Source: an uncultured Candidatus Saccharibacteria bacterium (GTDB lineage: Bacteria > Patescibacteriota > Doudnabacteria > UBA920). From it: a stretch of 64,000 nt of DNA. Shown here piece after piece: positions 29,786-55,085 of this stretch. The translations under genes were made by a program, and so were the position numbers. Positions within the stretch are counted from its first letter, which is position 1, and every line of letters begins with the position of its first letter. The stretch spans positions 168,647 through 232,646 of the forward strand of contig CAZRKK010000001.1 in the NCBI GenBank assembly GCA_964600695.1. The letters are read 5' to 3'. The notes under the pieces were generated by a model. It worked only from the letters and a program-made list of their open reading frames with translations. It did no database searches and was not told where the DNA came from.

Positions 29786-29878
<93 letters not shown>

Positions 29879-33001: not shown

Positions 33002-35113
33002 ATGTATTCTTTAAATACAAAAATAGAACGATTGCCTGGCATTGGGCCAAGCCTAAAAAAAACCCTCAACAATTTGGGTCTTTTTTATATAGAAGATCTT
33101 TTTTATCATATCCCATTCCGCTACATAGACTTTTCGCAAAAAATTGCTATCGGTAAAGCTGAGCCAGGACAAATGGTCACGTTAGAAGGAAAAATTACCT
33201 CCATTAATGCCAGAAGATCTTTTCGATCGCGACTGCAATTTACAGAGGCGATTTTAGAAGACAATACTGGAGAAGTTCACTTAATGTGGTTTAATCAACC
33301 ATATTTAGCCAAACAATTTTCCGAAGGTGATTTAATTGTCATAGCTGGTAAAATTGAATGGCGATTAGGTAAAAAACAGATAACTAACCCATACTTCGAA
33401 AAAATTGCTTCAGATGAACTCTCAGAATCAAAAGCTACTGGAAAGATTTTACCGATCTATCACCTAACTAAAGGTATAACCAATCTACGGTTGTTAAAAC
33501 TTGTAAAAATAAGTTGGGACAATTGTAAAAAAGATTTCGCCGAACTTTTAAATCAACAGTCTTTAAAAACATACAACCTGCCGAGTATAGCAAAGTCTCT
33601 TCAGGAACTTCATTTTCCTACCAATCAATCACAAATTAACTCTAGTAGATACCGAATCGCTATTGATGACTGTTTACCACAACAAGTAGCGTCTAGTATC
33701 AAACAAAAAATCCTAATCGAAAGTTCAGCTCCAAAACTCACCAACAATGTTGAGGTGATTAAAGATGTCGTTAGCAAACTCCCTTTTACTTTAACTGATG
33801 GGCAAAAAAGAGCTACGTGGGATATCCTGCAAGACATGGCTACAGGCCACCCTATGAACCGTTTACTTGAAGGTGACGTAGGAAGCGGTAAAACGGTAGT
33901 AGCGTGGCTAGCGGCCTATATGGCGGCTTTAGACGGCTATCAAACCATTATCCTTGCCCCAACAGAAATACTAGCTAGTCAACACTATGAAACCTTTTTA
34001 AATTTAGCTAGCGACCAAGATGGCCAAAAAACCGGTGGGCAAACCACCGGACAGATAAAATCCCAGATTGCTTTGCTGACCCGAAATTTTGTTAAAGTTG
34101 GAACCAACTACTCGACAGACAAAGAAGATCTAACTAAGCAGCTTAGTACTGGCGACATTAAAATTATAATCGGTACACACGCACTACTTAATGATAATCT
34201 TCACTTCTCTAAATTAGGGTTAGTTATTATAGATGAACAACATCGCTTCGGTGTAAGCCAACGTGCTTTCCTACAAAAAACCCACAAGAGCGATCTTATT
34301 CCACACTTGTTGAGCATGACAGCAACTCCAATTCCGAGAACACTCGCCTTATCATTATTTGGGAATCTCGAGATATCACAACTTACCCAACTCCCCGCCA
34401 AAAGACAAAAGATTACTACCAAACTATTATCAGAAGCAGATCGAAATATCGCTTACGATAAGATTAGTACAGAGATTTTAGCTGGTAGACAATCCTTTAT
34501 AATCACTCCTAAAGTTGAAGAATCTGAAACAGAGGTTAAGTCTGTAAAAGCAGAGTACGAAAGACTCCAAAAGTTATTTCCTAAGTTTAAACTGGGGTTA
34601 GTTTATGGCGGCCTCAGAGGAGAAGAAAAAGATAACACCATGAATCTATTTAAAGCAGGTAAAATTGATATTCTTGTTGCCACCACAGTCATCGAAATTG
34701 GTATTGATATTCCCAATGCATCTGTGATATTAATTGAAGGCGCCGAAAACTTTGGCTTAGCCCAATTACACCAATTACGTGGACGCGTTGGTAGAGGGCC
34801 CTTCCCTAGTTTTTGCTACCTCTTTACCACTACCGAAGAACAAATGGAAACTAATCGATTAAAAATTTTTGAACAAGTTAGTGATGGTTTTGCTCTAGCA
34901 GAACACGACTTGCAAGAACGAGGATTTGGAGACTTATTCGGTGAACAACAATCAGGTTTTGCGTTCCGTTTTCCAAAATTTGTCACAATCGCTGCTTTAA
35001 AACAAGCCAGAGAGATAGCACAAGATATTCTTCGCAACGACCCACAACTCACAAACCATCAAGCCCTAAAAAAATTATCCGATAAATACCTCGAGGTAAT
35101 TCATACTGAATAA
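33002..35113 (+). CDS. recG: ATP-dependent DNA helicase RecG
   Basis: A wedge/OB N-domain and SF2 helicase motifs are present: GDVGSGKT, DEQHRFG and a TATPIPRT-like segment. Confidence 0.85.
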   Translation: MYSLNTKIERLPGIGPSLKKTLNNLGLFYIEDLFYHIPFRYIDFSQKIAIGKAEPGQMVTLEGKITSINARRSFRSRLQFTEAILEDNTGEVHLMWFNQPYLAKQFSEGDLIVIAGKIEWRLGKKQITNPYFEKIASDELSESKATGKILPIYHLTKGITNLRLLKLVKISWDNCKKDFAELLNQQSLKTYNLPSIAKSLQELHFPTNQSQINSSRYRIAIDDCLPQQVASSIKQKILIESSAPKLTNNVEVIKDVVSKLPFTLTDGQKRATWDILQDMATGHPMNRLLEGDVGSGKTVVAWLAAYMAALDGYQTIILAPTEILASQHYETFLNLASDQDGQKTGGQTTGQIKSQIALLTRNFVKVGTNYSTDKEDLTKQLSTGDIKIIIGTHALLNDNLHFSKLGLVIIDEQHRFGVSQRAFLQKTHKSDLIPHLLSMTATPIPRTLALSLFGNLEISQLTQLPAKRQKITTKLLSEADRNIAYDKISTEILAGRQSFIITPKVEESETEVKSVKAEYERLQKLFPKFKLGLVYGGLRGEEKDNTMNLFKAGKIDILVATTVIEIGIDIPNASVILIEGAENFGLAQLHQLRGRVGRGPFPSFCYLFTTTEEQMETNRLKIFEQVSDGFALAEHDLQERGFGDLFGEQQSGFAFRFPKFVTIAALKQAREIAQDILRNDPQLTNHQALKKLSDKYLEVIHTE

Positions 35114-35558: not shown

Positions 35559-36869
35559 TTAGAGCTTTAGGCTCCTGATTGACTTGGTAGTTTTAGAATT
35601 AACCACATTGGCAAAACCTAATTTTTTGGCTTCTTTTTGTCGCTTCTCTACCTGAGACACAGTTCTAATTTCCCCTAATAAACCAATTTCACCAAAAGCG
35701 GTTGTCGCTTTTGGCCAAGCTTTACCTTGATAAGAAGACAAGATAGCCATCATCACTGGTAAATCTGCGGCACGCTCTGTAACCTTAAAACCACCGGCAA
35801 TATTTACGTAAACATCTTGGTTACCCAAATTGACCCCTAATGTCTTTTGCATGATCGCAATCAATAACTGAAGACGATTAACATCAAAACCCGATGCTAC
35901 TCTCCTAGGATAACTTGCATTGGTAGTATTTGTTAGAGCTTGAATTTCTACCAACAAAACTTTATTCCCCTCAAGTAGCGTTGCGACGCAGCTACCTGGT
36001 AAAGCTTGATCCTTATGTTCCAAAAACATTGCCGCAGGGTTATCTATTTCGACTAATCCTGTATCGCGCATCTCGAATACACCAACTTCGCCAATGCTTC
36101 CAAATCGATTTTTACTACTGCGCAATATTCGTAAATTACCTAGTCTCTCACCTTCTAAGTACAACACACAATCAACCATGTGCTCGATGGTTTTTGGTCC
36201 TGCCAAAATTCCTTCTTTAGTAACATGACCGATTAGTATAATTGTAGTGTGGGTAGATTTTGCTAAGCGGATTAAAGAATTAGTAACGAAAGATAATTGC
36301 GCAACACCACCAGTGACTCCACCTGCTTCTTCGCTATACATTGTCTGAACGGAGTCGATAATAACAACTTCTGGGTTTAATTGTTGGATTGATGCAATGG
36401 CAGATTCTAAATTTGTTTCCGCTAAGACCATCACATCCTGCCTTAACCCTAACCGCACATTGCGCATCGCAATTTGTTGGGCAGATTCTTCGCCAGAAAC
36501 ATACAAAGCAGTATGCTCTGTGCCGACTAATAAATTTGCTAATTGAAGAGCCAAGGTGGATTTACCAATTCCCGGATCACCACCAAGCAAAACAACAGAA
36601 CCAGTAACTAAACCACCACCCAAGACAACATCAAATTCATCTATCCCAGTAGATAGACGTTGTACTTTGTTCTGTTTAACTTCAGAAAGTAGGACCGGTT
36701 TGATCCCAGCAAATCCCCGCCCAGATCCAGAGCCAAGAGTGGATTTTTTTGTGGACTGAATAGTCTGTTCTGCAAAGGTATTCCATTGCTCACAAGAAGG
36801 GCATTTACCTTGCCAACGAGGGCTAGAAAACCCACAGTTTTCGCATATAAAAACGATTTTGGTACTCAT
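35559..36869 (-). CDS. radA: DNA repair protein RadA/Sms
   Basis: An N-terminal C4 zinc finger (CENCGF...CPSCEQW), a RecA-like Walker A (GDPGIGKST), a KNRFG motif and a Lon-like C-terminal domain are present. Confidence 0.85.
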   Translation of the reverse strand: MSTKIVFICENCGFSSPRWQGKCPSCEQWNTFAEQTIQSTKKSTLGSGSGRGFAGIKPVLLSEVKQNKVQRLSTGIDEFDVVLGGGLVTGSVVLLGGDPGIGKSTLALQLANLLVGTEHTALYVSGEESAQQIAMRNVRLGLRQDVMVLAETNLESAIASIQQLNPEVVIIDSVQTMYSEEAGGVTGGVAQLSFVTNSLIRLAKSTHTTIILIGHVTKEGILAGPKTIEHMVDCVLYLEGERLGNLRILRSSKNRFGSIGEVGVFEMRDTGLVEIDNPAAMFLEHKDQALPGSCVATLLEGNKVLLVEIQALTNTTNASYPRRVASGFDVNRLQLLIAIMQKTLGVNLGNQDVYVNIAGGFKVTERAADLPVMMAILSSYQGKAWPKATTAFGEIGLLGEIRTVSQVEKRQKEAKKLGFANVVNSKTTKSIRSLKL

Positions 36870-38136: not shown

Positions 38137-39369
38137 TTAAAACTTACTTATATCAGTGCAAACTTCATTAAAAGTAGAAGCAAATTCATTACCACTCCAC
38201 CAGTCTATAGCTTTTGTGGCCAAATTAGAAAAGAAGCCAGTACCCAGCCCTGAGGTTTCGCATATATACCAAAATATACTAGCTACAAAAGCTAAAAATA
38301 TAATGATGGCTAGTAAATCAAATAATAACAGGAAGATTTGCATTGGTTTTTTAGATAAGCCTTGCAAATACCCTTGAGTAGGAAAAACTACCCCAGCAAA
38401 CATATAAAAACTCATAAGTATTAACATTGGAATCCCTATTATCCATCCTAATATACTGAAGGTCATCCCGACAGCAATTATCAACAAAAAACCCATTAAT
38501 AAAAGCATGGAAGCTTTCTCTGCATGGAATCTAGCTTTCTTATGATGTTCTGCTGCTCCTTTAACATCTCCTTTTCTTAAGGCATTAGCAGCAGAGCCAA
38601 GTTCAAACGTACAGTCTACAGCATCACTTAAACCTAAATACATAGCTATCTCTAACAGTAAACCGATTAACAGGCCGATACCTAGAGTTTCTGGAGCAGA
38701 AGCAACTGCAGCACCACCAACTACCGTAGCTGCAGTCCCGCTAACCGCAGCGGAACCAGCTCCTGCAGCAACTTTACCTCCGACCTCTGCAGCACCTCTG
38801 ACAGCGAGCTTAGCGCCTTGTTTACCTAACTCTTCCCCAACCTTTTTGCCAACCTTTTTGACTGCTTTTTGTGCTGTCTCTTTAGCAGCCTTCTTTATAG
38901 CATCCTTGCTAACATCTTTAACTTCTTGACCGAACTTATCCTTAATTTTGTCTTTGGCGTATTTCTTTATCCTGTCTTTAGCTTCTTGCTTAATGCGTTC
39001 TCTGTTTTCTGGAGTATCAGCAGCAACACCTTTTATATTATCTAAGGCAGATTTTGCTTTTCCTATTGCGTTGCCAGCTTGCTTTGCCAAACCACCTTTT
39101 TGCGCTTGTTGATAAGAAGATTGAAACTCCGGATCTTTTTGACCATACTTTTCATTAGCAAAATTATAACCACTGTCATCATTCGTTGGTGCTTGCCTTG
39201 GGTTATTAGACTGATAACTATCTTCGTCTGTTAAAGGATTGTTCTGATAAGAACCTTGAGCATTTTGCCCAGGCACGTATTCGTCAGCATCTGACCCGCG
39301 AAAATTTGTTCCATCAAGTAACATCATATCTTTAAAATAATGGGCCCCACCAGCACTAGAGGGACCCAT
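38137..39369 (-). CDS. membrane protein of the T4SS-like locus: a Q/N/Y-rich N-terminal region, a Lys-rich coiled-coil middle and a C-terminal multi-TM region
   Basis: A Q/N-rich disordered N-terminus is followed by a KxxK-rich segment and then an Ala/Gly-rich and hydrophobic region with 4 or more TM helices. Confidence 0.5.
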   Translation of the reverse strand: MGPSSAGGAHYFKDMMLLDGTNFRGSDADEYVPGQNAQGSYQNNPLTDEDSYQSNNPRQAPTNDDSGYNFANEKYGQKDPEFQSSYQQAQKGGLAKQAGNAIGKAKSALDNIKGVAADTPENRERIKQEAKDRIKKYAKDKIKDKFGQEVKDVSKDAIKKAAKETAQKAVKKVGKKVGEELGKQGAKLAVRGAAEVGGKVAAGAGSAAVSGTAATVVGGAAVASAPETLGIGLLIGLLLEIAMYLGLSDAVDCTFELGSAANALRKGDVKGAAEHHKKARFHAEKASMLLLMGFLLIIAVGMTFSILGWIIGIPMLILMSFYMFAGVVFPTQGYLQGLSKKPMQIFLLLFDLLAIIIFLAFVASIFWYICETSGLGTGFFSNLATKAIDWWSGNEFASTFNEVCTDISKF

Positions 39370-39376
39370 GGTAGCT

Positions 39377-41227
39377 TTATTTTATTTCTGCTAAATCTTC
39401 TTTGCTTTGTTCAATTTCTAGCAACTGTTTTGGGTCCGTGGTAATAATCTGGTCTTCCACATAAGATGCATATATCTTGATAGCTGCGTGCTTTAACCCA
39501 GCAAAGAAAATTCCTTCTCCAACATCACTTTCTAATAATAGATATTTCTCCCCTTCGGTTAAAAAGAAAGTTTCGGCAACAATATCTACAGCCGCAGGGC
39601 TTTGTTTAAGCAATAATTGAATTGAAGAGTTGGTAACAATTGGTTTACCATAACTACTAGCCATAAAGTCGGCTACGTCTTGAGTGATAGTAGTCAATCC
39701 TAAGTAATACTTACGAGCCCGCTTAGCGATACCAAATACGAATCGAGCAGAATCTTCATGTTGCATCATAATCCAAGCCTCATCTAATACCAAAATTCGG
39801 CGCTTTAATTGACTTCGCACCACATTCCAAATATGCCCCAAAATAATGTACATTGCGATTGGTCGAAGAGAATCTTCTAGGTCTCGAATAGAAAATACTA
39901 GTAGCTGATTTTGTAATACTACGTTAGTTTGGTTATTTAATAATCCTGCGAAAGTTCCTTCGGTAAATTTACCTAATCTCATAGCCAAAGATTCGCCACC
40001 GACCATTCCACTTAAAATTTCGATAAGATCGCTCATAACTGGCATTTCGACTGTCGCAAAATCAGATGTTTCGTTTATATCTTTCTTAGCGTATGTTTGC
40101 CACATAGCTTTATCTAAAATGGCTTCTTCTGTCGGATCAAGCTTACCTAAGACCAAGCCCATCAAGCCGATTAAATTAATAATGGCGCTACGAAGAATAT
40201 CACCCTTGTCTTCATCTTCTAAGCCAATTGGCAAATCGAATGGATTGATACGAAAATCTGAGTTTAAAGAAATATTTAAATAAGTTCCGCCAACAGCTTC
40301 GGCTAAATGCTGATATTCATTTTCTGGATCCACGACTATCACTTCGATACCCACCATCAATGAGCGGAGGATTTCTAATTTTACAGCATAAGACTTTCCT
40401 GCCCCAGATTTTGCAAACACAACAAAGTTAGCATTTTCCATCTGAAATCTATCGAACAAAATTAAACTGTTATTATGACGGTTAATACCATACAAAATTC
40501 CATCGTTACCGGTTAGATCCGAAGATACAAATGGAAAAGTACTAGATAGCGGGCTAGTGTTAAGATTGCTAGCAACATCAAGATCATCGATTGCAAGCGG
40601 TAATGTAGAATTATACCCTGCCTCCACAGCCAACAAAGCTCTTTTTGTCACTACTAATTTGGCACCCAAAGCACTCTCTAAAATTTTGGAGTTCTTGTCT
40701 AATTCTTCTAAGTTTTCGCAATAAAGGGTGAAGTACAACGCAAAACGGAAGAAATGTTCTACACCTTGCTGAAGTTCGTCACGCAATTCTTCTACGTCAT
40801 GATAAGCGGTTTCTAGCAAAGGATTACGAGCTAAACCTTTTTCTTGTTCAATAGTCATCTGAGAACCAATTTCACCCACCTTGCTACGCAATTTTTTTAG
40901 AACCATTCCGGAGTCGATTGGATAAATAAACATCGAAACATCCAAAGCACTCTCGGAGTTTATAATAAACGATAACCAATTTGTAGACAAGAATCGAGGA
41001 TATGCCAAAACAAAGAAGCTACGTCCAAATTTACCGTTTAGTTCAAAATACGAATTAGAAAATTTTAAACTACTTGGGGCAAGTAAATCTTTAAGAGTAG
41101 TAACACCTTCGCGATACTCTTTTTCGACTTGAGCCAACTTTCCCTCGGCAGAAATCTGCCCCTTAAGGTGCTCTAACTCTTCCTTCTTTTTGTCGAGCTC
41201 TGATTTGTTAAATGAAAATAAACCCAT
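39377..41227 (-). CDS. VirB4/TraE/CagE-family T4SS ATPase, C-terminal ATPase portion (616 aa)
   Basis: Walker A (FAKSGAGKSY) and Walker B (RILVLDEAWIMM) are present. The YPRFLSTNWL segment is typical of Gram-positive-type VirB4 proteins. Confidence 0.8.
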   Translation of the reverse strand: MGLFSFNKSELDKKKEELEHLKGQISAEGKLAQVEKEYREGVTTLKDLLAPSSLKFSNSYFELNGKFGRSFFVLAYPRFLSTNWLSFIINSESALDVSMFIYPIDSGMVLKKLRSKVGEIGSQMTIEQEKGLARNPLLETAYHDVEELRDELQQGVEHFFRFALYFTLYCENLEELDKNSKILESALGAKLVVTKRALLAVEAGYNSTLPLAIDDLDVASNLNTSPLSSTFPFVSSDLTGNDGILYGINRHNNSLILFDRFQMENANFVVFAKSGAGKSYAVKLEILRSLMVGIEVIVVDPENEYQHLAEAVGGTYLNISLNSDFRINPFDLPIGLEDEDKGDILRSAIINLIGLMGLVLGKLDPTEEAILDKAMWQTYAKKDINETSDFATVEMPVMSDLIEILSGMVGGESLAMRLGKFTEGTFAGLLNNQTNVVLQNQLLVFSIRDLEDSLRPIAMYIILGHIWNVVRSQLKRRILVLDEAWIMMQHEDSARFVFGIAKRARKYYLGLTTITQDVADFMASSYGKPIVTNSSIQLLLKQSPAAVDIVAETFFLTEGEKYLLLESDVGEGIFFAGLKHAAIKIYASYVEDQIITTDPKQLLEIEQSKEDLAEIK

Positions 41228-41228
41228 A

Positions 41229-41915
41229 TTATTTTTGTAAATCTTTAATCGTCACCTTAGTTAATTGCTCTGCGTCGATATTTGGGCCAGAAGCAAAATT
41301 GTAAGAGTTATAAACTAATTCAATTAATTGGTCGGTGTTAAGCTTTACGACTCGTAAACCAGAGCTAGATAACGACGCCGAGACGGTATTAGCTCTTTCG
41401 TCTAACTGCTTTTTGTATGTGACTAAATTAGCTTCACGGTCCGTGACAGCCTTGGTTTTACCGGTTCCAAATATACGGCTAAAAATACTGGTCGCAGCTG
41501 GGTTAATACTGGTATCGTAAGGAACGATAACATAAAAGTTCTTACTCATAACATTAGCTGACTCTACTAATCGGTCAATAAACTCTATATATTCCTGAGT
41601 TTGCATTCTAAGAAGTTCATTAGTCTGCTTTTCCATCATCACTTTAAGTCTTTCGGTATATTCGGCTATGTCCATTTTGCGAGACTGCATCAAAATTTGA
41701 ACATGAAATTCCAAAGAATTCAAAAATCTTTGGTAACTATACACCAAAGCATTTTGCTCCTCTTCGCTCTTTAAATCAAAATTAGTACTAGACACAGCCA
41801 ACACTGCACGCAATGTGCCATTGTCCATAATAATCACATCATCACGTATTTCTGCGAGACGTAAAAATTGCTGAGTTGGACTGCCAATTTGTTTTTTATT
41901 TTTTGTTATTGCCAT
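41229..41915 (-). CDS. VirB4 N-terminal domain encoded as a separate 228-aa ORF
   Basis: DDVIIMDNGTLRAVLAVSSTNFDLKSEEEQNALVYSYQRFLNSLEFHVQIL follows the VirB4/PrgJ N-terminal pattern (dG.l.....v.g.nf.l.s.ee). Its stop codon sits 1 nt before the ATG of the ATPase ORF. Confidence 0.6.
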   Translation of the reverse strand: MAITKNKKQIGSPTQQFLRLAEIRDDVIIMDNGTLRAVLAVSSTNFDLKSEEEQNALVYSYQRFLNSLEFHVQILMQSRKMDIAEYTERLKVMMEKQTNELLRMQTQEYIEFIDRLVESANVMSKNFYVIVPYDTSINPAATSIFSRIFGTGKTKAVTDREANLVTYKKQLDERANTVSASLSSSGLRVVKLNTDQLIELVYNSYNFASGPNIDAEQLTKVTIKDLQK

Positions 41916-41921
41916 TTGATT

Positions 41922-42383
41922 TTATTTAGCACGATCAGTTTCTCTATTTTTTTTAATTCGCTCGATCAGACTTAACTCTTCGGTTTGCTCTTTTTGTAAT
42001 AAATAATTTAACTCTTTAATCTTTACAGCGGTACCTTTTAAGTCCTTTGGTGCCTGTTTTTCTTCGGAAATTATTGGAATGTCCATTTCGACAGATTCTT
42101 TTCCTTGTTTATGGTAAACGTACAACTTTGGACCAAAAAGGTAACTAAAAAAGTTTCCTGCGCTGGCATAGAGTGGCCGCCCGTTCAATTTACCAAAAAC
42201 CAAAGCCAACGCCGGTAATCCTGTCAGAACTGCGGTTGTAATTGTAACTGCTAAGTTTTTACTTATTGTGTAAATAACAAAAGTAAACACGGCTGCACCA
42301 AAAATTATGGCAAACTGTTTAAAGGTTAGGCCGGCAATGATTTTATCTTCGACGTCTGTAAATTGTGGGACTGGAAATTGCAT
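41922..42383 (-). CDS. VirB3/PrgI-like small 2-TM T4SS protein
   Basis: The N-terminal EDKIIAGLTFKQFAIIFGAAVF (the LT.rQ motif) is followed by two TM helices, at 153 aa. It sits immediately upstream of VirB4. Confidence 0.55.
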   Translation of the reverse strand: MQFPVPQFTDVEDKIIAGLTFKQFAIIFGAAVFTFVIYTISKNLAVTITTAVLTGLPALALVFGKLNGRPLYASAGNFFSYLFGPKLYVYHKQGKESVEMDIPIISEEKQAPKDLKGTAVKIKELNYLLQKEQTEELSLIERIKKNRETDRAK

Positions 42384-42397
42384 ATATATTATATCAT

Positions 42398-43354
42398 TTA
42401 AAAACGATTAACCTTGAGAGAAAGGAGAATGTCGGCTATAAATTCAAATTCTTCTTGTGATAAAGCCAAATTATCTTTTTTACCCATTAACATACTCTTA
42501 CCGTAATTCAAATAATCTTGATACAAAGGGCTCTGCTCAAGATTTGTAACAACCTGAAAGTAACCGTACTGAGCCGCTAGTTCATTGATAGTCTTATGAA
42601 ATGTTTCTCGATTCTGTTGATGTAGTGCTGAGCTAGTGAGATTACTGATATCCTCAAACTTACTAAGAACCATTGTATTCATAGACGAAGATACGTCTCT
42701 AATCGGAGATTTAGGAATAGACAGCGGATTAACAGGCGGCATAGGGACAGTCTCTGTAGGCTTAGGACTTGAAGGTGGCATAGGTATCGAACGTGGCCTG
42801 ATCGGAGCAGCTTGAGAATGCATTGGCATCGGCGCAGAAATGGGTCGTGGTGCGGTTTGTGGTGCTGCTGGTGATGGAGCTGATTGGAAGGTTAGAGGGT
42901 CCTGTTTTTGATCTGAAAGTTGATTAGGTAAATTACTAATATGCGACAAAGACGAGCCACCTAATGGCTTTGGTGCAGTAGCAGCTGGTGGAGTAGAAGC
43001 CACTGGCGGTATTGGAGATACTGCTGGCACCGACCTAGTTAGTGGCACTGGCCTTGTTGGTGGCATTGGCTTAGTTGGCGCGGATGGTGTTGGTGGTGTG
43101 ACTGGTGTGGTTGGTGGCATCGCCACAACTTGTGGTTGCTGTTGCGGTTGTGGTTGTTGTTGCGGTTGTTGTTGCGGTTGTGGTTGAGCGACAGGTTCTG
43201 GCTTTGGTTTTTGTAAAATTTCTTCTAGCTCTGCAATTTGCTTATCATTCATCAATTCAATTAAAGCCATCCATTCATTTTTTTCTTGCTCGCTTAAAAC
43301 AGTAGCACTTCTTACTAAGTTTTGTATCTGTTTTAATTTTTGTTCGTTTAGCAT
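42398..43354 (-). CDS. Pro/Gln-rich low-complexity protein
   Basis: A (PQQQ)n tract and a long PT/PS-rich region are present, with no TM helix. Structured N- and C-terminal ends flank the tract. Confidence 0.45.
   Translation of the reverse strand: MLNEQKLKQIQNLVRSATVLSEQEKNEWMALIELMNDKQIAELEEILQKPKPEPVAQPQPQQQPQQQPQPQQQPQVVAMPPTTPVTPPTPSAPTKPMPPTRPVPLTRSVPAVSPIPPVASTPPAATAPKPLGGSSLSHISNLPNQLSDQKQDPLTFQSAPSPAAPQTAPRPISAPMPMHSQAAPIRPRSIPMPPSSPKPTETVPMPPVNPLSIPKSPIRDVSSSMNTMVLSKFEDISNLTSSALHQQNRETFHKTINELAAQYGYFQVVTNLEQSPLYQDYLNYGKSMLMGKKDNLALSQEEFEFIADILLSLKVNRF
43131..43195. repeat. imperfect tandem trinucleotide/nonamer repeat (gttgtggtt/gttgttgcg units) encoding the PQQQ tract
   Basis: The tandem run reads gttgtggttgctgttgcggttgtggttgttgttgcggttgttgttgcggttgtgg. 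Confidence 0.6.
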
Positions 43355-43358
43355 TTTT

Positions 43359-44339
43359 TTAACTTTTAGTTTGGCCCTTGTTTCTGTTCTTGAGTTCTTC
43401 TAGTTTAGTTCGAATTTTTAATTCTTTAAGTTTTTGCTCGGCACGTTTTTCTCTACTAACAGCCTCTTGTTTTAAGTCTATGTTAGTCGGAATGTCGAAC
43501 ACCAAACCTTTTTTAGGTTGAGTGCTTAGATCTAGATCTTTTTGAGGGGCTATTTTGTAAGGAGATTGGGGTGTTTGAGGTAGTTCAGGTTCTGGAATTA
43601 TGTTCTGATCTTTTATTGGTGGTATTTCTTGCGGAGGTGTTATTTCTGGTTCTTCAGAGATTGGCTCTTCTGCTACAATTGGCTGTTCGAGCTCTGCCCC
43701 GTACTCTTCTTCAAACTTTTTTACTGCCCAATCTTGAAACTCTCGAGTGTCCTCTGGTGACAACTTTTCTGGGAGCTCTTCATAAAGATTAACTAAAGAA
43801 TCGACTCTATCATAAATTCTAAGAATACTTTGCAAGGCCTTGCGCTGACCAATAGAAAGAATCTTTAAATTAGGGCCAGTATTTATATATTTCATCTCAC
43901 CTAAAGCATCTTTCATTTCTGGATTAACCATGGATTGATAATCTAAAATCCAGTTTGCAATAGTCGGAGTTACCTGCTTCCCGTTTACATTTATTTTTTG
44001 ATCACCTAATAATTCTTGATGATTTACTAAAATTGCTTTCAATTTATAGAGAAAATCTATTTGCACATCAACATATTCTAACAGTTCAAAATAATCTGCT
44101 AATCTACTATCTAGATCAAAATCAGGAATTTGATAAGCTGCTAGAATAGACTCTTTGATGACCCCCAATAGACGTTCGGAATCCAAAGCATTCATACGTA
44201 AATAGTTGAGGCGTAAATAATCCGTACGAGGTAACTGGATTTGACTATCTCTTGCAGCCGCAACTAAAACTTCCCATGCTCTTTGAGCGTCACGGAATTT
44301 TATAGCTTCTTCAATTTTTAATTGAATTTCTGGGATCAT
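43359..44339 (-). CDS. hypothetical cytoplasmic protein with an acidic Pro/Glu-rich C-terminal region
   Basis: The 326-aa protein has no TM helix. It is translationally coupled to both neighbours. Confidence 0.45.
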   Translation of the reverse strand: MIPEIQLKIEEAIKFRDAQRAWEVLVAAARDSQIQLPRTDYLRLNYLRMNALDSERLLGVIKESILAAYQIPDFDLDSRLADYFELLEYVDVQIDFLYKLKAILVNHQELLGDQKINVNGKQVTPTIANWILDYQSMVNPEMKDALGEMKYINTGPNLKILSIGQRKALQSILRIYDRVDSLVNLYEELPEKLSPEDTREFQDWAVKKFEEEYGAELEQPIVAEEPISEEPEITPPQEIPPIKDQNIIPEPELPQTPQSPYKIAPQKDLDLSTQPKKGLVFDIPTNIDLKQEAVSREKRAEQKLKELKIRTKLEELKNRNKGQTKS

Positions 44340-47300
44340 ACAACTATATGGGGTTTAAAGATTCTTGCAACCCTTGGAGTAGCCACTTCAACCAAAGCAG
44401 AAGCAACGTGATTTCCAATTGAGTTGACTTCTTCAGGATTAGACTCAAACTTGCTTAAAATATGATCAGCAATAGGTCTGTCGATTTTCTGTCGCAAACT
44501 CTTAGACTTTTCTTTTGTATCGTAAGCTCTCAACTTTTCCTTAATTTTCGCATTAAACTGTTCAACTCCGTTACTGTCAGTATGAGTAACATCGCCCTTT
44601 TTCCACTCTGTAACCTCTTTAACCTTTTTGGTTTCCAAAACTTGCTGTTGTTGGGTAATCGTATTTAATATCCCACCACCGTTTGCTAAACTTTTTACTG
44701 CGTTAGACAAAGAAGTGTTGCCATTTTTTTCACTAGAATTAGATACTTCACGAATTATGTTAATTTGAGACTTCCCACTAACCTTTCCAAATTTTTCCTT
44801 AACAAACCCAGCGAGGTCTTCAACATTGTTTTTCTTTCCACTAGCCTTAAGCAATCTATCCAAAACTCCATTATCGGCCATCTGCTTAAAATGGGCTCTA
44901 GCAGCTGCCATATTATTCTCTTGCAAAGCTTTGTTAAAACCACTCTCTAGTTGATCATAATCAAGATCACCAAGATTTTTTTGAATATCACGAGCTTCGG
45001 AATCTTCTTTTGCCGCCAAGGCTTTGGAGAAAGGTCTTTCTCTGTATTGAGCCTTTTCGGCATCATCAGATGCTTCTTTCATATACCTCTTACGAACATC
45101 ATCATCCATAGTTCCGGTAAAGCCTAATTCAGTCCTTATGTTATTGTCATTCGTCAATACAACCGTGGCATCAGAAATATCTGCCGTAAGCTTGGCTTTT
45201 GTAGCATCGATATTTCTATTGAAGTCAGTACCCATATCATTTATATCAATGTCATTTAACCCATTAGCATCCGCGATTCCAATTGCAACATCAAGGGTAT
45301 TTTTATCATTTCGAAGTCTAGCAACTTTTGCCCGAGTGCCTGGTGTGCTATTTTGGGAATCCTCGGCTTCTGCCGCATTTAACTTTCCTTCAATATCAGA
45401 CAAGTTATCTCTTGCCATTTCGATATCCGCACGACCATTATTAAGAGCATTTAAATATCGTTGGTTAGTATTGAGATTAGTTGCCAATTCTCCCATATCT
45501 GAGTCATTACGAATTTCTGTAAATCGTTTCTTCTGCTCAGCCTGAGTCATTAATTTTTTAGAATCTTGACCCATAGCTTTCCAATACGCCATCTTCAATG
45601 GGAATAGTTTATTTTCACCCCACGGCTGGAATTTATCGGTAACGTCACTGAACTTTTCGGTAAAGCGCTTGTTCATCTCTTCCTTAGGATTATCAAACAA
45701 ACCCTTCTTTATTGCCTTACCAGCTTGAATAGGACGAGCAACGCCCATAATTGCTTTTTGTAAACCAGGGCGACCCTTTAACATTTTTGAACTAGCTAGT
45801 GCATCAGCCCCAGTATCCTTAGCCCACTTACCAGCTGCGAGAGCGCCACGTCCTGCTGCTGCAGGAACAGTCTTAGTAACAAAATCAAATCCCTTCTTGG
45901 CACCATCAACAATTTGCTTAGCACCAAATGTACCACTCTTTAAAGCGAAGTGCATACCAGCATAAAGGAAAACCAAAACAACAAAGTGAGAGATGATTGT
46001 AATGGCATACTCTGTAATTTCTTTGGCTGGATCCATACCAGCAAAAAGATAACTTGGATTTCTACCAGCTTCCACTGCATCACCAGAACGAGAAGCGAAA
46101 GTTGTTGCCATCAACGCTGTTATATTCAAGAAGAATGCCAAAATCGGAACAGTAAAAGCGTACTTAATAAACTGAGACCACCACTGATCAAAATAACTTT
46201 TTGTCTCAGGAAGTATGCGTGCTACATATGCCAAAGGTGAAACCATATACAAAAGCCACAAAGCCACGAGTCGGACTAAAATAAAAGCAATCAAAGCAAC
46301 AAACGAGAAGAAAGATGCTATGGCTAAAATTAACAGTACAATAGGTTTTGTAATATCACTTGCACTTAATTGAACAGTAAAGTTACTGTTTTCGGTTATA
46401 TTTTCTGCGAAACCACCAGAGCTATCTTGTCCTCTAAAGAACTTAATCGGATCAACCATTAACTTTTGACCCAATGCTTCTATAACTTTACTTTCAGCAG
46501 GTAAAAATTGGGATTGCACAGTATCAGCTATCCCTACAACTCCTTGGGCAATGACTAAACTAAAGTTAACTAACAAAGCCATTAACACAAGCCATAAAAT
46601 AAATCCGCGTGACTTACCAGCATCATCAACTTGAAATAAGGTACGCAAACCCATCCACAACAAAGCCAAAATAAAACCAATGTTTGCTACGTTACGTAAG
46701 ATAATCCATCCAGGGTAAATAAAGTTAACAAACTGATCTTCGTATGGTCTGATTTTTAACAATGCATTTAGTATCGGTACTAATATAATCGCAAAAATCC
46801 AGTACAACACACTGGTCATCAAGAGCACTAAATAAGAGATGACCTTACGAAGGAAATTAAATAAGTCGCTACCAGCAGTTGTCTCAGACTTAGCTTCATC
46901 AGAGGTAGTGGTTTGGGATATTGGTTCTGCAAATCCAAACTTTGCAAAATTAGGATCTTTGCTACACTTTTCCTTATCTTCTGGTTTTACATCTGCCTCA
47001 CAAGCTGCAATGATATCCTTAATATCTTTATACACCTCAACAGTAAACTTTTGTAAATTTCCAGAGCCAGCAACTAAAATAACAGGGTTAACATAGCCCC
47101 CACCACCAATATATGCTTGTGGACCAGCAGTGCCTGTAACCCCAATTATACCTGGCAAGGCAACAAACTCTGCTTGACCGATCATCTTTCCGCTACTAGT
47201 ATTTGTAGTTGCAGAACTTGTAGCAGGTTTGTCGGTGGATGTTTTTGTGGTTTTATTCTTCCACGCAGCAGATTTTAAAATAGGTTTAAAATCACCTGGT

Positions 47301-48406
47301 ATTTGACCTGGGGCTGCTTCATCACCATTACCACTACTATCACCTTTCCTAAAAACCACCTTAGAGCAATTCGTCCCAATCCAACCCGCCTCACAGGCTA
47401 TAGGCACTATACTCTTTGCGGTATCGTAGTAACTAAAATAAACTGTACTATTTTTATAGATAGGTTGATAAGTAATCCCTGCTTGCTTTCCATCATCCTT
47501 CTTGGGTAGACTGAATTTCTGCTCCGGAACTAATTTTTTTGAACCCCACTCTAAATGAACAGCATCCAAACCAGCTGTGGTTCCAAAATTTAAATCACCG
47601 TCTGTCTCTAGTACTCGATATTTTGATCTTAAACCAGCACCACCTTCTTTTGGTTTAATACTAATAGGGATTGTTTGATAGTCAACTACTTCCCCTTCCT
47701 TTACATTAGTTTGACTATTACCACTCGCTCCTACTTCAGGCAAGGTTGTTTCTTCTGGACTATCAGACTTAGCCTTGTCGTGCTTCATGTTAACCTTACC
47801 AATCGAACCAGTTGAGGAACTTAAGGTTCCATTTTTGAAAAAATAACCATAAACACAGTAATTTGTCTGGTAAGTTCTAAGGCTAGTGTCTGATAAATTT
47901 TCTATACTCAAATTTTTTATTCTCGCCCTAAACATGTTTTTCTCTGGTACGAACTCTGCATCATAACCAGTTAAACCATTTCTTGCCACTAAAGAAGTTG
48001 CGCATGTACCTGCTACATTTTCACCATATAAAAATGGTGCAAAACTATATCCTGCCCCGTTATTTGCAGTCTTACAAGCATCGGAAGTTGCTTGATCTAC
48101 AACTACCTCCATATACATATCAAACTTTTCTTTTGTCCCGACCACAGATTTATTTGCTAGGACCCGATAACTCTTAAGGCCAGAAATGATAGTTCCTACG
48201 GAAATATTACAACTAGCCCCTCTAATTGAAGGGATAGATGGCAAGCTCAACTGCGCCTCAGCAACTTTCACCCTGATAGGTAAAACAGGCAAAAATAAAG
48301 AAGCAACGAGAATCCCTAAGATAAATCTTTGGAGAATTCCCCTGCTTATTTTTAATGAGTTTGGGGTTAAAAATTTAAGTAATTTTTGTATTGATTTCTT
48401 GGTCAC
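44336..48406 (-). CDS. giant VirB6/TrbL-like polytopic membrane protein (1356 aa) with a large N-terminal extracellular region, a roughly 6-TM core and a long charged C-terminal domain
   Basis: A signal/TM segment starts the protein. About 500 aa of hydrophilic sequence is followed by a cluster of 6 to 7 hydrophobic helices from aa 520 to 830. The final roughly 500 aa are a coiled-coil-rich charged domain. This architecture resembles expanded VirB6 homologs. Confidence 0.5.
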   Translation of the reverse strand: MTKKSIQKLLKFLTPNSLKISRGILQRFILGILVASLFLPVLPIRVKVAEAQLSLPSIPSIRGASCNISVGTIISGLKSYRVLANKSVVGTKEKFDMYMEVVVDQATSDACKTANNGAGYSFAPFLYGENVAGTCATSLVARNGLTGYDAEFVPEKNMFRARIKNLSIENLSDTSLRTYQTNYCVYGYFFKNGTLSSSTGSIGKVNMKHDKAKSDSPEETTLPEVGASGNSQTNVKEGEVVDYQTIPISIKPKEGGAGLRSKYRVLETDGDLNFGTTAGLDAVHLEWGSKKLVPEQKFSLPKKDDGKQAGITYQPIYKNSTVYFSYYDTAKSIVPIACEAGWIGTNCSKVVFRKGDSSGNGDEAAPGQIPGDFKPILKSAAWKNKTTKTSTDKPATSSATTNTSSGKMIGQAEFVALPGIIGVTGTAGPQAYIGGGGYVNPVILVAGSGNLQKFTVEVYKDIKDIIAACEADVKPEDKEKCSKDPNFAKFGFAEPISQTTTSDEAKSETTAGSDLFNFLRKVISYLVLLMTSVLYWIFAIILVPILNALLKIRPYEDQFVNFIYPGWIILRNVANIGFILALLWMGLRTLFQVDDAGKSRGFILWLVLMALLVNFSLVIAQGVVGIADTVQSQFLPAESKVIEALGQKLMVDPIKFFRGQDSSGGFAENITENSNFTVQLSASDITKPIVLLILAIASFFSFVALIAFILVRLVALWLLYMVSPLAYVARILPETKSYFDQWWSQFIKYAFTVPILAFFLNITALMATTFASRSGDAVEAGRNPSYLFAGMDPAKEITEYAITIISHFVVLVFLYAGMHFALKSGTFGAKQIVDGAKKGFDFVTKTVPAAAGRGALAAGKWAKDTGADALASSKMLKGRPGLQKAIMGVARPIQAGKAIKKGLFDNPKEEMNKRFTEKFSDVTDKFQPWGENKLFPLKMAYWKAMGQDSKKLMTQAEQKKRFTEIRNDSDMGELATNLNTNQRYLNALNNGRADIEMARDNLSDIEGKLNAAEAEDSQNSTPGTRAKVARLRNDKNTLDVAIGIADANGLNDIDINDMGTDFNRNIDATKAKLTADISDATVVLTNDNNIRTELGFTGTMDDDVRKRYMKEASDDAEKAQYRERPFSKALAAKEDSEARDIQKNLGDLDYDQLESGFNKALQENNMAAARAHFKQMADNGVLDRLLKASGKKNNVEDLAGFVKEKFGKVSGKSQINIIREVSNSSEKNGNTSLSNAVKSLANGGGILNTITQQQQVLETKKVKEVTEWKKGDVTHTDSNGVEQFNAKIKEKLRAYDTKEKSKSLRQKIDRPIADHILSKFESNPEEVNSIGNHVASALVEVATPRVARIFKPHIVV

Positions 48407-51953: not shown

Positions 51954-52802
51954 TTATTTTACAGAGTTGAGTTCGGTGACTAAATCTATCCATTGCTTGA
52001 TAGTTAACTGTTGAGGTCGAAGCTGTGGATCAAGTTTTAATTTACTTAGAATTTTTAAAACAACATCTTTCGGCATTCCAAAATTATTTGTCAACGTATT
52101 GTGAATCTGTTTTCGTTTACCTGTAAAGCACGCTCGTAATACTTTAAATAATTTTTGCTCTGTTGTAGAATCCATTTTGTATTTAGATTTTTTATGCAGT
52201 TCAATATGCACCACTGCACTGTCTACTTTTGGTGCCGGAAAAAACTTTCTCGCTGGAACGACTTCAACTAATTTTGCATCCGCATAAAGTTGAACAGAGA
52301 TTGCCAGCAGGTTCAAGCTCCCCTCTTTGGCAGTAAGATTATTAGCAACTTCTTTTTGCATTAACAAAGTTAAACTTGTTGGTTTATGTTCACGCTTCAA
52401 AAAGTACTGAACAATTTTTCCAGTTACATAGTACGGAATGTTTGCCACAACTTTATAATCATTTTTAACTGCATCACCGGTTAACACAGAATCAATATCA
52501 GTTTCTAAAATATCTGCTAACACATATTTAAAATTCTTATGCTTCTTTTTAAGAGAGTTAAGGACATTTGTAAACTGTGGATCTTTTTCGACAGAAAATA
52601 CTGAGCCAGCTTTTTCTAATAAAAATTTTGTTAGGTTACCAATTCCAGGACCAACTTCTACTACAACATCTTTATCACCAACTTTAGCGACATCCAACAT
52701 ATCTTGTAAAACAATTTCGTCCAATAAAAAATGCTGACCAAAAGTTTTGTTTGGGCTTAGTCCGTAATCTATTAATAATTGTTTAAGAGTTTCTGGAGTC
52801 AT
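51954..52802 (-). CDS. rsmA: 16S rRNA (adenine1518/1519-N6)-dimethyltransferase
   Basis: FGQHFLLDEIVLQDML and a SAM-binding VVEVGPGIGNLT motif are present. Confidence 0.85.
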   Translation of the reverse strand: MTPETLKQLLIDYGLSPNKTFGQHFLLDEIVLQDMLDVAKVGDKDVVVEVGPGIGNLTKFLLEKAGSVFSVEKDPQFTNVLNSLKKKHKNFKYVLADILETDIDSVLTGDAVKNDYKVVANIPYYVTGKIVQYFLKREHKPTSLTLLMQKEVANNLTAKEGSLNLLAISVQLYADAKLVEVVPARKFFPAPKVDSAVVHIELHKKSKYKMDSTTEQKLFKVLRACFTGKRKQIHNTLTNNFGMPKDVVLKILSKLKLDPQLRPQQLTIKQWIDLVTELNSVK

Positions 52803-52811
52803 GAAATTAAA

Positions 52812-55085
52812 TTAATCATCGAACGGAACGTATCTAACATTCTCTTCGTCGTCTTCACCCTCGAGCCCGCTACTTTCAATAGCAGCCAGATTGCCATTCA
52901 ACTTAATAGCTCCTTGTGGTAATGCCCGTAAAATCCGAGAAGGAGCATTGGCCTGAAAACTTCCGTACATTTGCCTGCTCTTAGCATACACTAAAAATAA
53001 TCTTTTGCGTGCCCTAGTTAAACCCACATATGCCAAACGAATCTCTTCGGCTAATTCACTTGGATTAAGTAAACTGTTTGAATGAGGCAAAACTCCTTCT
53101 TCCAAACCAACAAAAAACACTGTATCAAACTCCAAACCCTTTGCCGCATGGAGAGTCATTAACGTCACAACATTTTTTGTATCTGAGGTTTTATCTAAAT
53201 CTGTAATTAAAGCGACTTCCTCTAAAAACTCTAATAAACCTTCTTGCCAAGGCAGATGGTCAAACTTTGAAGTTACATTGAATAATTCGCGGATATTTTC
53301 TATCCGAGTTTCGCCTTGATCAGTACCGTCTTTATAAAACTCTTCGATACCAGAAAGCTTCACTACAACCTTTAACAACTCGCTGACTGTGGTTTCCTCG
53401 GGGACAATCTGAGCTTTGTGCAACATTTCGAAGAATTTATGCAGACTTTCAGTTTGCCGCGGGGGTAGGCTAATTAAACCGAGCCGTCTGACTGCCTCTG
53501 CAACATCTGTCACACCTGTCTGAGTTAACACAAATTCACGAATAGTATCCATGGCCTTATCTCCTATTCCGCGCGGTGGTAAATTCACTACTCTTCGCAA
53601 TGAAGTGAAATCGAAAGGATTAACTAACAAACGCAAGTAAGCTAAGGTGTCTTTTATTTCTTTACGTTCATAGTACTTAACTCCACCAACAATTTGATAT
53701 GGAATACCTGCTTCAATAAAAACTTCTTCAATTTCACGGGACTGCGCATGAGTTCTATACAATACAGCCATCTCGTTTAATCCACTATGATCTTTTGGAA
53801 GTTGTGGTACGAAACCTCCATAAGTTCCGCGACCGCCTCCAAAACCGCCTGTAGAAGTGAAACCACCGTTTGAAGAAAAACCACCGCCGCCATTGCGTTT
53901 GTAACTATTTCTTTGTTTAGCCAAGAATGTATCTAAAATAGAAAAAGACTGGGTTTGAATTTCTTGCTCTTCTTCAACAAAATCTTCTTCGTGAAAACCA
54001 TCATCACCGTTGAAATCACCAACAGTAGCATCTTGTTCATATTCAAGATCGTCATGCTTCTTTGTAGCCAAACGCACTACGTGCTTAGCAATAAACAGAG
54101 CCTCCGCACGCCCATCGTAAACCTCCTCGATTAATACCTTGTCACCATCATCATTATTAGTCCAAAGTGTTTTTGGTTTTTGATCATGATTTAACTCAAT
54201 GACTTTTTGAGCAGCAGCCAATATATTTTTGGTCGAACGATAATTTTGCTCTAGTTTAATTACAGTACTTTTTGGAAAGTCTTTTTCGAAATTAAGAATA
54301 TTGGCTATATTACTCCCACGGAAACCATAAATACTCTGAGCATCATCACCTACCACAAATAAATTTCCTTTATTTGCTAACAAATGCAAGAAAGTATACT
54401 GAGCCTGATTAGTATCTTGATATTCATCTACTAATACATAAGGCCACAACGTTTGGAATTGACGTAAAATTTCTGGAAAGGTTTGGAACAAGACTATTGG
54501 CAACATTAACAGGTCATCAAAATCAACAGAATTTTGTTTATACAAAAAGTCTTGATATCTTGCGTAAACCTGACCAACTATATCGTGCATATGACCTTCA
54601 AGACCCACATTTAGATTAGCTGAGGTTTGCAACAAGTTCTTGGCTCCAGAAATGTAGGCGCGGAATAATGTCGGTGCATACTGTTTGGGTATGTTCAGAT
54701 CTTTTAAGATATCCTTAATAATCTTGACCTGATCATCACCATCAAGAATGGCAAATCCAGAATTATAACCAAGCTTAACTATATACTTTCTTAAAATCCG
54801 AACCCCAATAGAATGAAAAGTTCCTAAGGCAGGTTGAGTATAAAATTTATGATCACTTTCTGCTATTAAGTTAGCCACTCTGGTCTGCATTTCTTTGGCA
54901 GCTTTATTAGTAAAAGTCACAGCTAAAATCTGATCTGGCTTAAAGAGGCCTTGCTCTATAATATAAGCTATTCGGTAGGTCAAAACCCTGGTCTTACCAC
55001 TGCCAGCACCAGCCAAAACTAAAACCGGCCCAAGTGGGGCGGTCACAGCTTGTCTTTGACGATCGTTGAGTGAATTTAAGTCCAT
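52812..55085 (-). CDS. uvrD: UvrD/PcrA-family SF1 DNA helicase with a Gly-rich insertion
   Basis: Walker A (AGAGSGKTRVLTYRIAYII), DEYQDTN and the QNYRST motif are present. An inserted NGGGGFSSNGGFTSTGGFGGGRGTYGGF segment sits at about aa 395-425. Confidence 0.85.
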   Translation of the reverse strand: MDLNSLNDRQRQAVTAPLGPVLVLAGAGSGKTRVLTYRIAYIIEQGLFKPDQILAVTFTNKAAKEMQTRVANLIAESDHKFYTQPALGTFHSIGVRILRKYIVKLGYNSGFAILDGDDQVKIIKDILKDLNIPKQYAPTLFRAYISGAKNLLQTSANLNVGLEGHMHDIVGQVYARYQDFLYKQNSVDFDDLLMLPIVLFQTFPEILRQFQTLWPYVLVDEYQDTNQAQYTFLHLLANKGNLFVVGDDAQSIYGFRGSNIANILNFEKDFPKSTVIKLEQNYRSTKNILAAAQKVIELNHDQKPKTLWTNNDDGDKVLIEEVYDGRAEALFIAKHVVRLATKKHDDLEYEQDATVGDFNGDDGFHEEDFVEEEQEIQTQSFSILDTFLAKQRNSYKRNGGGGFSSNGGFTSTGGFGGGRGTYGGFVPQLPKDHSGLNEMAVLYRTHAQSREIEEVFIEAGIPYQIVGGVKYYERKEIKDTLAYLRLLVNPFDFTSLRRVVNLPPRGIGDKAMDTIREFVLTQTGVTDVAEAVRRLGLISLPPRQTESLHKFFEMLHKAQIVPEETTVSELLKVVVKLSGIEEFYKDGTDQGETRIENIRELFNVTSKFDHLPWQEGLLEFLEEVALITDLDKTSDTKNVVTLMTLHAAKGLEFDTVFFVGLEEGVLPHSNSLLNPSELAEEIRLAYVGLTRARKRLFLVYAKSRQMYGSFQANAPSRILRALPQGAIKLNGNLAAIESSGLEGEDDEENVRYVPFDD

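Follow-up and report, generated by a model that had tools for sequence, protein, structure and literature searches.

A virB4 gene very probably carried as two adjoining halves in a chromosomal type IV secretion locus of an uncultured Saccharibacteria bacterium

Two adjoining reading frames with similarity to VirB4

The canonical VirB4 ATPase of type IV secretion systems (T4SS) is a single chain of ~800 aa in which a complete N-terminal domain of ~400 aa is followed by a C-terminal domain. In a 64,000-nt stretch of contig CAZRKK010000001.1 (positions 168,647 to 232,646, forward strand; assembly GCA_964600695.1) from an uncultured Candidatus Saccharibacteria bacterium, hereafter the window, similarity to VirB4 is spread over two adjoining open reading frames, ORF1 and ORF2. 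This raises the question of whether the pair represents a damaged gene, a complete VirB4 beside an accessory protein, or one VirB4 encoded by two genes. We consider it very probable that ORF1 and ORF2 are the two halves of a virB4 gene that underwent fission naturally and in the distant past. The features at issue are as follows.

41229..41915, minus strand: ORF1, 228 aa, with its TAA stop at 41231-41229
39377..41227, minus strand: ORF2, 616 aa, with its ATG at 41227-41225
41225..41231, minus strand: ORF1/ORF2 junction, read directly from the sequence as TAA, one spacer base (41228) and ATG, with a +1 frame offset

The minus-strand letters across the junction are ...TTA CAA AAA TAA T ATG GGT.... 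The original prediction had described this TAA-N-ATG arrangement between a 228-aa and a 616-aa frame, and its coordinates and description agree with the sequence; the two peptide strings that it quoted, IIMDNGTLRAVLAVSSTNFDLKSEEEQ and EFHVQIL, are both located in ORF1. The ATG at 41227-41225 is the earliest possible start in the ORF2 frame. To compare junctions we used 17 species-representative genomes (53-97% identity to ORF1), giving 18 loci with the window. In all 18 the ORF2 N-terminus M-x-L-F-S/T/A/K is kept from the ATG, confirming this codon as the start.

ORF1 and ORF2 correspond to complementary parts of VirB4

ORF2 had been proposed to be a Walker A/B ATPase, an assignment borne out by its Pfam, NCBIfam and structural matches. 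It scored 340.1 bits against the NCBIfam CD1110-type VirB4 model (NF045971; cut-off 325) and matched P-loop_TraG (89 bits), AAA_10 and DUF87 in Pfam. Residues 237-596 aligned with the crystal structure of the VirB4 C-terminal domain (PDB 4AG5; expect value (E) 1.9e-42), and the Walker A motif GAGKS is part of the alignment. The matches to full-length VirB4 models began at position 156 of 752 (NF045971, extending to 728), 283 of 894 and 213 of 792, and residues 140-563 matched residues 301-735 of TrwK, the VirB4 of R388. ORF2 is shown by these alignments to be VirB4 minus its first ~200 residues, comprising the second half of the N-terminal domain (residues ~1-236) and the RecA-like ATPase (~237-596). 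The complete two-domain chain is therefore not present on ORF2, and the missing part lies on ORF1. The 616-aa ATPase should not be annotated as truncated or as a pseudogene.

ORF1 matched the opposite end of the same models. On NF045971 it covered positions 3-137 (26 bits, below the cut-off of 325), such that this model is divided between the pair, and it aligned with positions 98-236 of 894 in VirB4_plasma and 19-179 of 789 in a third NCBIfam VirB4 model. ORF1 also matched the NCBIfam TrsD/TraD model NF041427 (E 2e-7, 31 bits; curated cut-off 200), and a profile of the ORF1 family aligned with TrsD of pSK41 by hhalign (residues 9-204 to 31-217, 176 columns, E 8e-5, probability 61%). Since both the score and the probability are low, the link to staphylococcal TrsD is one of remote homology and not of close family membership. 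The 'TraC-like' family PF26593 is the precomputed assignment for all 120 best ORF1 homologues, one of which is 99% identical. Our own Pfam scan of ORF1, made against a copy that probably lacked PF26593, returned no family at E <= 0.01 and weak matches at E <= 1.

Searching the PDB with the ORF1 sequence gave nothing meaningful, and a profile of stand-alone ORF1 homologues gave a 30-column, non-significant match to TrwK, at a position-consistent place. TrwK was recovered by fold search alone. An AlphaFold (AF2) model of ORF1 built from 68 homologues had a predicted local distance difference test score (pLDDT) of 85 and a predicted template-modelling score (pTM) of 0.75. The top 14 PDB matches of this model in Foldseek were all R388 TrwK/VirB4 chains (probability 0.97-1.00, query TM-score ~0.3-0.5), and TrwK/VirB4 was the sole PDB match at E <= 0.001. 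Taken with the positions on the NCBIfam models, ORF1 is shown to correspond approximately to the first 200 residues of canonical VirB4 and is probably a TrsD-family or 'TraC-like' (PF26593) protein, and the VirB4 N-terminal similarity originally proposed for the 228-aa frame is upheld. Its annotation as a hypothetical protein should read TrsD / VirB4 N-terminal module.

Full-length relatives carry both modules on one chain

An exhaustive search of representative sequences yielded two full-length relatives in which both modules are fused. In the first (P0221, 797 aa), residues 8-211 match ORF1 residues 14-209 (41% identity) and residues 226-796 match ORF2 (53%). In the second (P0246, 898 aa), residues 1-208 match ORF1 (35% identity) and residues 323-890 match ORF2; identity to ORF2 across the two proteins is 53-55%. 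Both fused genes are real. The P0221 gene follows a PrgI gene and lies near dnaA, while the P0246 gene is likewise preceded by a PrgI gene and is found unchanged on five contigs, which stem from three or more sequencing runs. A search with P0221 found, among 119 clusters listed, 117 further clusters at 90% identity with lengths of 775-807 aa; those with a named source came from Candidatus Colwellbacteria, the Parcubacteria group or the Patescibacteria group. Furthermore, a profile of concatenated ORF1 and ORF2 sequences aligned with TrwK residues 1-797 (probability 98%), and the predicted structure of P0221 matched full-length TrwK (E 3e-25, ~836 columns).

Many stand-alone ORF1/TrsD homologues (P0123, P0131, P0134, P0162, P0233, P0269 and others) possess low-complexity tails of 100-220 aa rich in P, Q, A and N. 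These lie at either the N- or the C-terminus, and the C-terminal ones resemble the linker of P0246. A fusion to VirB3 was suspected in the longer ORF1 homologues and rejected, the extensions being such P/Q/A-rich tails.

The break lies within the N-terminal domain

The split had been placed exactly at the domain boundary, and alignment to full-length homologues had been expected to map the junction to the linker between the N-domain and the ATPase domain. Neither holds. ORF2 retains ~236 residues of the N-terminal domain ahead of the region resembling 4AG5, and the junction falls instead at approximately residue 180-212 of a VirB4 of ~790-823 aa. In TrwK, the N-terminal domain spans residues 15-400 and the C-terminal domain begins at ~400 (PMC9259494). 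By permissive profile alignment the junction corresponds to approximately TrwK residue 207, and by profile coordinates to residues ~180-212 of canonical VirB4. The Pfam model TraC_F_IV (375 positions) is itself interrupted at the junction, its positions 133-182 matching ORF1 residues 160-217 and its positions 287-374 matching ORF2 residues 125-212. In the fused P0221 the model gives a single match (residues 169-394, model positions 133-371).

Structural confidence is low on both sides of this comparison. The last ~20 residues of the ORF1 model have a pLDDT of ~47-57, and the pLDDT of P0221 dips to 59-64 in the equivalent segment. The fused relatives have a linker of variable residues here, mostly rich in P and A, which measures 14 residues in P0221 and ~114 in P0246. 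The break therefore lies at approximately residue 200 of the ~400-residue N-terminal domain, in a variable, low-confidence linker. That it lies inside this domain, and not at the border with the ATPase, is a modest addition to what is described for T4SS, and the site offers a permissive VirB4 linker usable for protein engineering or for dissection of the N-domain.

Four points weigh against the interpretation of ORF1 and ORF2 as two halves of VirB4. The mapping of the junction onto TrwK is weak, with low per-column confidence in the N-terminal region and a marginal profile hit (E 0.002). The P0221 model is of moderate confidence (pLDDT 72, pTM 0.52). ORF1 falls far under the TrsD cut-off, at 31 bits against 200 on NF041427, and its profile alignment with pSK41 TrsD reaches a probability of 61%. 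Finally, binding of ORF1 to ORF2, and of either protein to PrgI, is predicted from homology.

Conservation of the split and alternative explanations

ORF1 and ORF2 homologues were separate genes in all 17 relatives, which derive from Saccharibacteria, Doudnabacteria and Patescibacteria metagenome-assembled genomes. Their junctions measured -4, -1, +1, +2, 20, 35, 44, 47, 52 or 81 nt and took the form of ATGA, TAATG, TAA-N-ATG, TAA-NN-ATG or a spacer of 20-81 nt, with ORF2 in frame 0, 1 or 2 relative to ORF1. A total of 945 ORF1 homologues were found, the best 120 of which (64-99% identity) were all 225-240 aa in length; at 50% identity, 148 of the top 150 clusters were stand-alone. The ratio of nonsynonymous to synonymous substitution rates (dN/dS) was 0.015-0.023 for ORF1 and 0.004-0.03 for ORF2, with dS of at least 0.5 and often saturated. 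As judged from these codon comparisons, both genes are shown to be under strong purifying selection. The original proposal of a genuine two-gene arrangement, and the check for the same split in related genomes that accompanied it, are thus supported by 17 of 17 relatives with varied junctions and a dN/dS of ~0.02.

We considered whether the 1-nt junction serves as a dedicated device for coupling translation, holding the output of both halves at 1:1. In 12 of the 18 loci, counting that of the window, the distance lies between -4 and +2 nt, and ORF2 is not preceded by a Shine-Dalgarno-like motif. The missing motif is uninformative, however, because such motifs precede 5 of the 53 genes in the window. 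Half of all same-strand neighbour gaps in the window (20 of 40) are 14 nt or shorter, and the gaps from the VirB6-like gene through to the gene after virB4 are -4, 4, 14, 6, 1 and 7 nt; six relatives, moreover, have 20-81 nt between ORF1 and ORF2. The 1-nt spacing is the usual packing of a compact, Shine-Dalgarno-poor operon, and a dedicated device is in our judgement rather unlikely. Some coupling between ORF1 and ORF2 is possible, and plausible since the organism rarely uses Shine-Dalgarno sites, although it would not be conserved at the junction. The short spacing may permit termination-reinitiation, which is not required given that the spacers of relatives reach 81 nt.

A second possibility is that VirB4 is already complete and that ORF1 works beside it as an accessory paralogue derived from a duplicated N-terminal fragment of VirB4. 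In its favour, a recent study counts TrsD as a T4SS component in its own right whose homology to the VirB4 N-terminus is remote, assigns it no function, and reports that Gracilibacteria TrsD genes mostly do not adjoin virB4 (PMC12102498). Against it, the matches of ORF2 begin well inside the full-length models and at TrwK ~301 by sequence, each module occurs once in the fused relatives, that of ORF1 preceding that of ORF2, and one Pfam N-domain model (TraC_F_IV) spans both proteins. As ORF2 is without the region that ORF1 supplies, ORF1 is not a redundant paralogue, and we regard this explanation as very improbable.

There is almost no probability that the locus is a single virB4 gene of ~845 codons interrupted by a frameshift error of sequencing or assembly, or by a mutation that recently made it a pseudogene. 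Canonical VirB4 is indeed a single chain, fused forms exist in other Patescibacteria, and damaged copies do occur. One such copy (L021:1282-3458) is a Colwellbacteria-type virB4, 88% identical to P0221, that has lost the segment of residues 90-192 and changed frame. It has no clean start, was called as a 600-aa ATPase, and reflects either pseudogene formation or a fault of assembly. The junction in the window looks different. Two frames with differing junction sequences and spacers recur in 17 independent assemblies, the best 120 ORF1 homologues are of uniform length, the N-terminus of ORF2 is kept from the ATG onwards, and the closest relative has diverged in ORF1 by a dS of 0.76 at a dN/dS of 0.015. 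The 600-aa product of the damaged locus (P0289, 88% identical to P0221) was accordingly rejected as an example of recent fission, and an 872-aa ORF2 in another relative (L008) proved to be an artefact in which a masked run of N joins ORF2 to the downstream gene.

Programmed +1 frameshifting at the A-rich CAA-AAA-TAA-T site, which would join the frames into a full-length VirB4, can be dismissed with the same confidence: although the +1 frame stays open over the seven codons leading up to the ATG and five consecutive A lie ahead of the stop, the final pair of sense codons varies from relative to relative (CAA CAA, TCT AAA, TCC GAA, CTA AAA, GAA ACA), no slippery motif is conserved, frames 0, 1 and 2 all occur, six loci have spacers of 20-81 nt and the pSK41 spacer is 14 nt. 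Sequencing error, pseudogene formation and programmed frameshifting are thus excluded as the split is conserved, the junctions and frames vary, dN/dS is low and a conserved slippery motif is lacking.

A predicted two-chain VirB4 protomer

With ORF1 and ORF2 taken as halves of one VirB4, homology suggests that they would reassemble non-covalently into a VirB4-like protomer. In R388, the N-terminal domain of TrwK binds VirB3 and mediates VirB4 dimerisation (PMC9259494). By comparison with the R388 structure, ORF1 and the N-terminal part of ORF2 may form a membrane-proximal N-domain that docks on PrgI/VirB3, while the C-terminal domain of ORF2 would form the ATPase ring, with the oligomer acting as the secretion motor.

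The surrounding secretion locus

The neighbours expected of a virB4 gene are present, and the genes around ORF1 and ORF2 are as follows.

41922..42383, minus strand: prgI, a VirB3-like small membrane protein (153 aa; Pfam PF12666 PrgI, E 1.5e-8, above the gathering score)
42398..44339, minus strand: two tightly packed genes, of 326 aa and 318 aa (P/Q-rich), between the VirB6-like gene and prgI, candidate members of the system from their position
44336..48406, minus strand: a 1356-aa protein with a TrbL/VirB6 domain (Pfam PF04610 TrbL, E 2.6e-9, residues 580-777)
38137..39369, minus strand: a 410-aa predicted membrane protein directly downstream of virB4, after a 7-nt gap
35559-36869 (minus), 33002-35113 (plus) and 51954-55085 (minus): flanking region of housekeeping genes

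PrgI is the VirB3 of monoderms, and prgI is the first gene of a prgI-trsD-virB4 trio. Its position matches that of traC in pSK41, of the PrgI gene in pJFP838A and of the PrgI genes that precede the fused relatives. The VirB6-like gene stands upstream in the T4SS gene string and overlaps the next gene by 4 nt. The 326-aa and 318-aa proteins gave no match in a Pfam scan; their genes have neighbour gaps of -4, 4 and 14 nt, and the 318-aa protein (42398-43354, minus strand) has a long P/Q-rich centre. From their position, both probably belong to the secretion system. The 410-aa protein, which likewise had no match in a Pfam scan, has a K/A-rich segment and, after it, several hydrophobic helices. 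A homologue (31% identity, 284 aa) also lies downstream of virB4 in the relative L008, and position again suggests that the protein is part of the secretion system. Small frames around 48.5-51.3 kb had no Pfam match.

The T4SS string is flanked by radA/sms-like, recG, ksgA/rRNA adenine dimethylase and UvrD-family helicase genes, and two tRNA-Ser genes are present at 29786 and 32387. The locus is chromosomal and not on an obvious mobile element.

A -10-like hexamer, TAnAAT, starts 6-20 nt upstream of the start codon in 13 of the 53 genes, and within 6-15 nt in 12 of these 13; by way of control, it is present in 4.9% of random 25-nt windows. Examples lie upstream of 42383 (prgI), 36869, 55085, 59668, 61128 and 15492. 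This placement, together with the rarity of Shine-Dalgarno-like motifs, suggests that many mRNAs in the window are leaderless or nearly so. The sequence GATATAATATAT immediately precedes the prgI ATG, so that the prgI-trsD-virB4 trio may have its own promoter. A consensus promoter scan of the operon found 38 sites compared with 33.6 +/- 6.2 in shuffled sequence, which is not above background.

Evolution and possible function of the split

A neighbour-joining tree of the ATPase module (16 sequences) placed the split Firmicutes forms outside the Patescibacteria group, and within that group split (Saccharibacteria-like) and fused (Colwellbacteria-type and P0246) forms were both present. As a weak inference, the architecture must have changed at least twice at this one site, in a direction that 16 sequences cannot decide.

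Fission may be functional and not neutral, a detachable TrsD setting its stoichiometry apart from that of the ATPase or regulating dimerisation and the docking of the hexamer on PrgI/VirB3; we consider this improbable. Were it so, the essential T4SS of Patescibacteria could, for example, switch between assembly states, and both the repeated gain or loss of a covalent link at one site and the long disordered tails of TrsD proteins would reflect selection on the tether.

Comparison with known systems

R388 TrwK/VirB4 (PDB 7O41, 7O43, 8RTD) shares its fold with the ORF1 model over the N-terminal part and with the fused relative over the whole chain. It differs in being a single 823-aa chain of ~14-21% identity, and its system is that of a diderm and has a core complex in the outer membrane. 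The RefSeq translation of R388 trwK (NC_028464; L019:2738-5209) departs from the PDB sequence of TrwK over ~45 residues (~508-550), reading FNPFHAPADARKPDF... versus FNPFQLPPTHANLIF..., in what looks like compensating frameshifts between sequence versions.

The full-length VirB4 proteins of other Patescibacteria (775-807 aa) and P0246 have the same order of modules as ORF1-ORF2, with PrgI upstream and, for P0221, dnaA nearby. They are single polypeptides, whereas the window encodes two.

The pSK41/pGO1 plasmids (MPF_FATA, pGO1 subclass) encode traC (VirB3-like, 135 aa), trsD (227 aa) and traE (672 aa), an arrangement matching that of the 153-, 228- and 616-aa proteins of the window. ORF2 residue 47 aligns with residue 36 of pSK41 TraE; as this alignment opens at N-terminal positions ~11 residues apart, pSK41 has its break at the same place. 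The sequences are nevertheless very distant, with 24% identity between the ATPases and a TrsD similarity detectable by profile only. Moreover, pSK41, a conjugative plasmid, has both a relaxase and a coupling protein, whereas the locus in the window is chromosomal, lies among radA, recG, ksgA and uvrD-like genes, and includes the 1356-aa VirB6-like protein.

The Clostridium perfringens megaplasmid pJFP838A (L023, 48271-51577) also has the order of the window, encoding PrgI (102 aa), an ORF1-like protein of 312 aa and a DUF87 ATPase of 641 aa. In the window, too, a stand-alone protein in the range of ~200-230 aa stands between a virB3-like gene and a VirB4 ATPase that lacks its N-terminus. The same break point is therefore found in Saccharibacteria-like genomes, staphylococcal pSK41 and a clostridial megaplasmid, and fused and split forms both occur within Patescibacteria. 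ORF1-like proteins are encoded on large Bacillota plasmids typed as non-mobilizable (pJFP838A and the Aneurinibacillus megaplasmid L022), and also on haloarchaeal plasmids of Natrinema, Haloterrigena and Halorientalis. Both L022 and L023 have a sigma factor gene and clpX upstream and are not typical conjugation loci.

A further counterpart is the Patescibacteria T4SS itself. In the available part of their article, Quinonero-Coronel et al. (2025; PMC12102498) report TrsD as the most abundant T4SS component in Patescibacteria, with 2,272 homologues of which 1,664 adjoin virB4, and describe a remote homology between it and the N-terminus of VirB4. They list as essential the TrsD homologue that Southlakia epibionticum ML1 possesses, and the T4SS was shown to be essential in the same organism (Wang et al. 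2023, cited in PMC12102498). Two small points go beyond what that part of the article spells out, namely the complementarity of the two proteins and the existence of fused and split forms within the phylum. None of the points made here about the split VirB4 opens a long-standing question. The components VirB4, TrsD, PrgI/VirB3 and VirB6 that the article describes, with the TrsD gene beside virB4, are present in the window, in the same lineage and clustered on the chromosome, and nothing substantive differs from the account given there. Since TrsD beside virB4 is already published throughout Patescibacteria, the two-gene VirB4 of this locus, TrsD plus a shortened VirB4, is an ordinary instance of a known system.

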